From: Ascidiella aspersa | Taxonomy: Eukaryota | Reading direction: 5' to 3' | Assembly: GCA_963924565.1 (NCBI GenBank) | Contig: OZ004614.1 | Location: 18,972,001 to 19,036,000 of the forward strand | Length of the DNA: 64,000 nt | Part shown: positions 62,189 through 63,355 of the stretch, in pieces | How the letters are laid out: each line of letters starts with the position of its first letter | Numbering within the stretch: position 1 is the stretch's first letter | Notes under the pieces: generated by a model | What the model was told of the DNA's origin: nothing | The model's database searches: none | What the model saw: only the letters and a program-made list of their open reading frames with translations | Position numbers and translations under genes: made by a program

Positions 62189-63355
62189 ATGGCTATGACG
62201 TTCCGCTGCGCGATCGTTCTGTTTGTGGCTCTGTGCTGCGTCCAGCCCCTACTGGGTGAGTTAACCAGGCGAAGGCAAAACAAAAGAGTCTGTTGTCGAT
62301 CTTGTAATATATCATTCATCAGTGTACTCTGGTCAAACCATTAAAAGTCACTGTTAAAAAAATCTGAACTGAGCAGCTAAAGCGTAAACTTATGTCAGCA
62401 AAAGTGTAAACTTATGTCAAGTGTTGAGGCAGAAATGTAGTTAAAATCATGTTTTTATTTCTACAAACGCTGTTGCGTGCTCGTTCTGGTTTTGGGTCTG
62501 CAACCTCTTGTAGCGCCGTTGCTTATTATATTACGTATACAAACTAGCGTACTTAAAATTGGGGTCGTCGTTTTAAAACGAATACTCCTATTCTACAAAA
62601 TTATACTTTGCACAAAAATTACCATGTTACTTAATATTTTGATGTGTTTGTGAAAATCAAGTTATACTTGTCTTTAGGATGTCACTGGCTAAGTAGGAGA
62701 CGAGGCAAAAGACAAGCCGATGAAAGCTCGTCTCAAGAAGAGATCGGCGAAACAGAATATCTGCGGTTCTTTCTTACCGAATGTCTCGAGAATAAGGTTT
62801 TATAATGTGTTGTGTTGACTCAAGTCAATGACTTAACTTAAGTCATTAATACCTAAGTACTAGACTTAAATTATTTTAATAAAATAACTTTACTACACTT
62901 AGGCTTTCAGATAGATAATTTGGCTTATAGGTAAGTGTTTTTGTAAATAAGTTTCTGTACAAAGGTTTTACGGGTTTACCCCAATTTATGCAGGCAAAAT
63001 AATTTGCCCGCTATATTTTACATTTTGTTGTAAAATACGTTTACAAATTAAAAAAAATTGATGCGTTTGACTTGTCTTTGCCTTGATTTAATTTGCCCAG
63101 AACTTGGACTGACAATTCTCTTGAACTTTTTTTTAATAACCTGTTTACAACATTGGTTTGTACTTTCGAATTAGATTCAACCTGCAATTACAGCACAGGT
63201 TCCTAATCGCCAGGTATAGGCTACTTGCTGTTGTTATCAAGCGGGATCTTTTGTGTTTGCAGGCCGGAGACATCTGGGATTGGCGAAGTGTGGTCGACGT
63301 TACCATTCTCGACTCGTTCTGGTACACTGTGACCGACGAGCTAGATTGCGGGTAA
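62189..63355 (+). CDS. Prepropeptide (92 aa): signal peptide, CHWLSRRR-G-KR amidation/cleavage cassette, acidic C-terminal extension
   Basis: Exons 62189-62255 (G|gtgagt), 62678-62796, 63263-63355. MAMTFRCAIVLFVALCCVQPLLG-CHWLSRRR-GKR-QADESSSQEEIGETEYLRFFLTECLENKAGDIWDWRSVVDVTILDSFWYTVTDELDCG*. Phases 1/0 join in frame; AATAAA at ~63692. The exon-2 donor (gtttta) is weak. Confidence 0.8.

Follow-up and report, generated by a model that had tools for sequence, protein, structure and literature searches.

Gene organization at the locus

At 62189..63355 (+) of the 64-kb stretch of DNA that was analysed (hereafter, the window), there lies a small and unannotated gene, very probably a real one, in which three exons with GT-AG boundaries join into an open reading frame of 279 nt for a protein of 92 residues (Table 1). 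In order, the encoded precursor consists of a signal peptide (hydropathy peak of 3.3), the octapeptide CHWLSRRR, the tripeptide Gly-Lys-Arg (GKR), and a tail of 58 residues, among which there are 15 Asp or Glu, three Lys or Arg, two Cys, and three Trp (net charge of -12). An earlier note on this DNA had proposed the same exons, with junctions at 62255/62678 and 62796/63263, and these match our sequence model of the predicted splicing exactly, just as the residue counts bear out the 58-residue acidic extension with two Cys that it described. Exon 1 ends at a phase-1 donor (TGG/GTGAGT), while the acceptors before 62678 and 63263 read ...GTCTTTAG and ...GTGTTTGCAG, respectively, and shifting the start of exon 3 to one base later breaks the reading frame. 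The donor of exon 2 (AAG/GTTTTA) is a weak one, but reading through it leads to a stop two residues later and so leaves the octapeptide-GKR part unaffected, the resulting product of 64 residues still having the peptide, GKR, and an acidic piece.

Table 1. Features of the octapeptide precursor gene and of neighbouring secreted-peptide genes in the window.
Feature	Position	Strand	Description
Exon 1	62189..62255	+	67 nt; ATG at 62189; signal peptide, 22 codons and the first base of Gly23
Intron 1 (predicted)	62256..62677	+	422 nt; GT-AG; GC 0.35
Exon 2	62678..62796	+	119 nt; octapeptide, GKR, and first 28 tail residues, including one Cys
Predicted mature octapeptide CHWLSRRR	62680..62703	+	Net charge +3
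Gly-Lys-Arg	62704..62712	+	Predicted amidation donor and dibasic site; with the preceding Arg, an R-X-K-R furin-type site
Intron 2 (predicted)	62797..63262	+	466 nt; weak donor, strong acceptor
Exon 3	63263..63355	+	93 nt; last 30 tail residues (three Trp, second Cys next to last); TAA
Candidate polyadenylation signals	63618..63697	+	ATTAAA at 63618 and 63649; AATAAA at 63692
Repeat precursor	48844-50580	+	Single exon; 578 aa; secreted; signal cleavage best after residue 22
8-Cys gene copies	15348-16522, 29307-30491, 41341-42524; 57771-54771	+, +, +; -	Three exons; 82-84 aa
Head-to-head neighbour	54771..57771	-	82-aa copy of the 8-Cys gene; 4.4 kb from the 62189 gene

Neighbouring secreted-peptide genes

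Scanning the window for first exons that look like signal exons and end at a good donor, we obtained five genes, which were the 62189 gene and four copies of a gene for an eight-cysteine (8-Cys) peptide. These copies encode cationic secreted peptides whose eight Cys are divided between exon 2 (three) and exon 3 (five). Past the signal, each peptide has 11-12 basic residues (net charge of about +9 to +12), and both introns of the genes are in phase 1. In fact, each of the five small genes has a phase-1 intron exactly where the signal peptide ends, though there is no sequence likeness between the 8-Cys genes and the 62189 gene beyond this design. For the 8-Cys genes, no Pfam family was matched at the cut-off, and their exon 3 had no match in the PDB. 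Taken as they stand, they look like an unclassified family of antimicrobial peptides, and the region as a whole has the appearance of a cluster of small secreted-peptide genes undergoing duplication, as is typical of defence loci. That four 8-Cys genes sit beside the 62189 gene, with the same signal-exon design, is a new observation, and one that we count in favour of host defence.

The region also contains a tandem segmental duplication of about 11.4 kb (24519-35858 versus 36560-47855; 98.7% identity), along with an older partial copy of about 91.5% identity (15284-18034 versus 29243-32003 and 41277-44034). The tandem duplication, which in part could reflect the assembly of two haplotypes, has increased the copies of both the 8-Cys gene and pieces of the 578-residue repeat gene, the latter having truncated copies at about 24430-24846 and 36546-36887. 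In the full-length repeat precursor, we counted 42 units, nearly all of 13 residues, each with an Ala- or Ser-Trp-Tyr-Asp right after Arg (23 units start with SWY and 19 with AWY). Cuts after the Arg and before the Asp, a site described for clavanins and styelins, would release 42 tripeptides of the form x-Trp-Tyr, and we put this gene forward as a possible ribosomal source of tunichrome/halocyamine-like modified oligopeptides. Its single Pfam match, to a phage family, was judged spurious, and nothing relevant to the repeat motif was found in mostly open-access literature. The repeat precursor is probably of more interest than the octapeptide gene, and together with the 8-Cys family it may outweigh the 62189 gene alone.

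Several other features of the window were recorded. Between the two head-to-head genes, at about 900 bp upstream of the ATG, there is a GGGAAA-T-TTTCCC palindrome (61280-61292), which is κB-like and longer than the usual 10-mer, and a rough 10-mer pattern for NF-κB had no match on the plus strand from 57772 to 62189. Short high-copy repeats are found at 62807-62844 (in intron 2) and 61036-61070, where contig depth is about 20 times that of the flanks. On the minus strand, a multi-exon gene with no match in Pfam may lie at about 5750-12200, as suggested by a number of short stretches that resemble exons and have good splice sites.

Coding evidence, DNA variation, and transcription

We regard it as highly probable that the gene at 62189..63355 is both real and expressed. 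Set in an AT-rich window (GC of 0.33-0.42 in 2-kb bins) with spliceosomal introns, exons 1, 2, and 3 have GC contents of 0.60, 0.46, and 0.55, as against 0.35 and 0.32 for the two introns. In exon 3, codons of the purine-N-pyrimidine (R-N-Y) type make up 15 of 30 in the proposed frame versus 6 of 29 and 4 of 29 in the other two, though no such frame bias is seen for exon 2 (9 of 39 versus 11 of 38 and 6 of 38). A G-[KR]-R within the first 20 codons occurs in only three of the 248 acceptor-led open frames of the window, and none of 25 windows generated by a third-order Markov model gave a signal exon joined to a downstream G-[KR]-R exon, with criteria that were set post hoc.

For DNA variation, two contig runs (X1 and X2) were compared with the window, and 40 of the 57 differences were listed, with 20 falling in intron 1, seven in intron 2, ten in the flanks, three in exon 2, and none in exons 1 and 3. 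Moreover, none of the nine listed indels is exonic, and three of them are in intron 1. The three differences in exon 2 (62721, 62724, and 62733), all from X1, are at third codon positions and are all synonymous, where the share of possible single changes that are synonymous in the coding sequence is 22%. This listing is complete for X1 over exons 2 and 3 and for X2 over exon 1 and 43 nt at the start of exon 2, and outside it are two differences in the X1 contig over exon 1 and eight in the X2 contig over exon 3. At the Gly-Lys-Arg codons, which both runs cover, no difference is listed.

In the one RNA run (X3), linked by species label and covered to the extent of 7,793,684 records (some 6% of it), there were no reads on the exons, and the one partial read at the locus fell on the high-copy repeat of intron 2. 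Neither of the joints for which the earlier note had suggested an RNA-seq check was seen, but this null is weak since the tissue is unspecified and there is no control gene in the stretch. With no read on the exons, the junctions are predictions only. That the locus is inactive, whether decayed or silent or with its exons wrongly joined, strikes us as quite improbable: the empty RNA run, the weak donor of exon 2, and the lack of any homologue in our searches (below) are what such a locus might give, and yet the reading frame and splice dinucleotides are intact, the listed exonic differences are synonymous without exception, the listed indels spare the exons, exon 3 has its coding-frame bias, and the 25 null windows are empty of like models.

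An isoform that skips exon 2 was rejected. The phase-1 frame of exon 3 (63265-63426, +) is open for 53 codons, rich in Arg, and has a G-R-R after nine residues, and skipping would through this frame give another cationic amidated peptide. Here, we judged the frame to be a shadow of the R-N-Y bias in the main frame, and GC content falls at the main stop.

Searches for homologues

As queries, we used single-exon frames instead of the spliced protein, which lowers the reach of the searches. With the 41-residue frame of exon 2, no match was found in the representatives library at an E value of 0.001, and Pfam returned no family for the three exon peptides. Likewise, none of 109 other frames from the window matched Pfam at the curated cut-off, these being 107 frames of at least 50 residues with a GC of at least 0.40 outside 24400-50600, plus two exon frames. 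Single-exon queries had no matches in the PDB, and there were none in Rfam. Unnamed clusters alone were returned by the ESM Atlas, at 0.88-0.90 and with low recognition, and this outcome is no evidence for novelty or for absence. A metagenome scan produced 600 pattern matches, of which none was confirmed, and the 10 loci from a degenerate motif scan were judged to be chance (GC of at least 0.56 in nine and a stop inside the motif in five), with no likeness beyond the motif in any of them. No paralogue of the gene was found in the 64-kb window. Going by its sequence, the gene appears to have a precursor type that is already known (signal, cationic peptide, GKR, and anionic piece) and to be a member of no family tested.

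A hexamer common to a Ciona antimicrobial peptide

Residues 3-8 of CHWLSRRR are identical to residues 2-7 of the tested peptide from KH.C1.640, a Ciona LCAMP (Tables 1 and 3 of PMC7387483). The cationic segment of KH.C1.640 opens with WLSRRR, its synthetic 14-mer has an MIC of <3.125 µM for both Escherichia coli and Staphylococcus aureus and is active at 500 mM NaCl, and LPS induces the gene in haemocytes (PMC7387483). By eye, aromatic-S-(G)-R-R-R starts are found in three more of the 22 candidates listed there (KH.C5.577, KH.C7.94, and KH.L136.4). The link to KH.C1.640 is a new lead for host defence, one absent from the earlier note. In mostly open-access text, we found no source for the WLSRRR string besides PMC7387483 and no match for HWLSRRR. 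A chance match has a probability of about 0.002, a rough figure that is post hoc and uses guessed residue frequencies. Since the match was made after the fact, among Arg/Trp-rich peptides, and over six residues only, we treat it as a lead and not as homology. Here, the comparison covers the exact hexamer, and the activity of the 14-mer may depend on the part that is not common to the octapeptide.

Processing and predicted product of the precursor

Signal cleavage was scored with a von Heijne-type matrix, by which the best site is after Gly23 (9.2), followed by Pro20 (5.1) and Cys24 (4.4). The cut after Gly23, right before Cys24, is at the exon boundary, as in the neighbouring peptide genes, and yields the octapeptide, in agreement with the start given in the earlier note. 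Both the signal peptide and this score lend support to the secreted prepropeptide that the note had deduced from the sequence. The note had also offered a pyroglutamate-extended product (pQPLLGCHWLSRRR-NH2), which we disfavour, as the cleavage after Val18 that it calls for is not among the six best sites by this matrix.

The basic stretch RRRGKR can be read in three ways, which are G-KR amidation, a furin-type R-G-K-R followed by Gln, and an R-R inside the peptide (pairs at residues 29-31). Our tentative preference is for the first, in which the predicted gene product is a cationic octapeptide amide for host defence, accompanied by an anionic propiece. In this scheme, the precursor would enter the secretory pathway and be cut by signal peptidase after Gly23, a convertase would cut after Lys-Arg, a carboxypeptidase would take off the Lys-Arg, and PAM would convert the Gly to the amide, thereby giving an Arg/Trp/His octapeptide amide (+3 from side chains). 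With its charge of -12, the tail would neutralise and chaperone the octapeptide in the secretory granule until release, whereupon the octapeptide would target the membranes or surfaces of microbes in the manner of the Arg/Trp-rich peptide of KH.C1.640. The computed monoisotopic masses are 1111.59 Da for the octapeptide amide and 2221.17 Da for its dimer.

Only signal cleavage after Gly23 leaves the octapeptide with its one Cys, and this N-terminal residue might stay unpaired, link two octapeptides into a dimer, or form a disulfide with the tail. With three Cys present in the proprotein, a bond between Cys24 and the tail is conceivable, as is loss of Cys24 when the signal is removed. Against the host-defence reading, two Cys, three Trp, and hydrophobic stretches give the tail more features than a simple acidic spacer would have. 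Moreover, the RRR on its own makes a convertase site, and trimming might remove it from the octapeptide. As a bolder proposal, and a slim one, the aromatic-W-L-S-R-R-R start might be a conserved active motif of Arg/Trp defence peptides across species, here released as a minimal amide of eight residues whose N-terminal Cys dimerises or ties it to the acidic three-Cys proprotein, keeping it latent until reduced. Should the octapeptide be produced and prove active, it would rank with the shortest amidated antimicrobial peptides that genes encode, and it would suggest WLSRRR as a minimal motif in common with a salt-resistant Ciona peptide, a link between peptides that homology searches cannot connect.

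Alternative products

The consensus for furin is R-X-K/R-R. The RRRGKR stretch contains a furin-type R-X-K-R site followed by Gln, and for this reason the tail may be the real product, a reading missed in the earlier note and the strongest rival. Here, the first 11 residues would be a propeptide, and the product would be the 58-residue tail, starting with Gln (as pyroglutamate) and having one disulfide (Cys58-Cys91), as a small acidic secreted protein or hormone with a computed mass of about 6733 Da. We consider this possible but doubtful. The R-G-K-R is preceded by a run of Arg (Arg at P6, P5, and P4, with Lys at P2 and Arg at P1), the Gln comes directly after the site, and the tail itself has an even number of Cys, three Trp, and amphipathic stretches, takes up two of the three exons' worth of coding sequence, and shows only synonymous changes among those listed. 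Still, the same R-G-K-R junction in polyphemusin releases an amidated cationic peptide (PMC6315362), the hexamer match to an antimicrobial peptide sits in the N-terminal part, neither tail exon has a family match, and read-through at the weak exon 2 donor drops exon 3.

An unlikely alternative is that of a lineage-specific neuropeptide or hormone, with an amidated octapeptide after the signal and a two-Cys associated peptide, arranged like the precursors of GnRH, AKH, and corazonin and acting on a GPCR. A peptide at the N-terminal end of the precursor is common to the VP/OT, NPS/CCAP, GnRH, and corazonin types (PMC5818035), and ascidians are rich in lineage-specific neuropeptides. With GnRH itself, the likenesses are His2-Trp3, the Gly-Lys-Arg, and the position next to the signal, but pGlu1, Ser4, and Pro9-Gly10 are lacking and the length is eight residues instead of ten; moreover, the ascidian genes encode several GnRH copies per precursor, while there is a single GKR site here (PMC7697785). 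We therefore reject membership in GnRH, as the earlier note had also done. By eye, the octapeptide resembles none of the 18 neuropeptides listed as Ciona-specific (PMC8936170), and a triple Arg would make a poor C-terminal end for a neuropeptide, being a processing site in itself.

Most improbable is a different short peptide, either a heptapeptide amide free of Cys (cut after Cys24; computed mass of 1008.58 Da), which would exactly parallel the aromatic-W-L-S-R-R-R start of KH.C1.640 and make the Cys count of the proprotein an even one, or a non-amidated pentapeptide (644.27 Da) from a cut at the Arg pairs inside RRR, given that the Cys24 site, though third best, scores less than half of Gly23 and that a phase-1 intron follows the signal exon in five of the five small genes.

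Comparison with known peptide precursors

Passages of PMC9966394, PMC12441681, and PMC6475428 held nothing bearing on the octapeptide precursor. At eight residues, the predicted peptide is far shorter than the mature helices of the clavanins (23 residues) and styelins (31-32 residues) (PMC10608444), the myticalins (23-42 residues) (PMC5577615), and the 14-mer of KH.C1.640, though the size has a precedent in plicatamide, an antimicrobial octapeptide from an ascidian.

With the LCAMPs of the KH.C1.640 type, the gene shares the order of signal, cationic, and anionic parts that most Ciona LCAMPs have, as well as a precursor length (92 residues) within their range of 50-100 (PMC7387483). In contrast, the cationic region of KH.C1.640 is about 19 residues long with a second Trp/Arg block, and the tails of the two show no likeness by eye. 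Moreover, the Ciona LCAMPs have no basic sites at the boundary where GKR is found here, and they were selected as Cys-free cationic amphipathic helices over an 18-residue window, whereas our octapeptide begins with Cys and the precursor has three Cys after the signal (PMC7387483).

The clavanins and styelins are amidated haemocyte peptides of ascidians, and like the 62189 gene they have an anionic C-terminal proregion (PMC10608444; PMC7387483). The earlier note had likened the layout to theirs, and this holds for the anionic proregion but not for the cleavage site, which here is GKR followed by Gln, while the cuts in clavanins and styelins are reported to lie on the N-terminal side of DD and D, respectively (PMC7387483). 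As for single-disulfide dimers of ascidians, halocidin (18+15 residues) and dicynthaurin (30+30 residues) are made of chains of 15-30 residues (PMC10608444), and for an 8-mer whose Cys is the first residue, the dimer would be quite unlike these.

Closer parallels are found outside the ascidians. The polyphemusin and tachyplesin precursors likewise have a signal peptide, a cationic peptide ending in Arg, GKR, and an anionic propiece, with the GKR of polyphemusin located between mature peptide and propiece and form III also ending in Arg before it (PMC6315362). Nevertheless, those peptides are chelicerate β-hairpins of 17-18 residues with four Cys, as against one Cys in eight residues here, and there is no sequence likeness (PMC6315362). 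An Arg-amide C-terminus, as predicted for the octapeptide, is also found in gomesin (PMC6099743). In the myticalins, a signal, an Arg-rich linear peptide, a Lys-Arg site, a Gly amidated by way of CPE and PAM, and an anionic extension (35-75 residues) follow the same plan, though signal and mature peptide are on one exon instead of being split by a phase-1 intron, and the myticalins form a multigene family, in contrast to the lone copy in our window (PMC5577615). The G-KR amidation layout that the earlier note had put forward for the octapeptide has documented counterparts, between cationic peptide and anionic propiece, in polyphemusin and the myticalins, and the layout of the 62189 gene is closer to their precursors than to those of clavanin and styelin.
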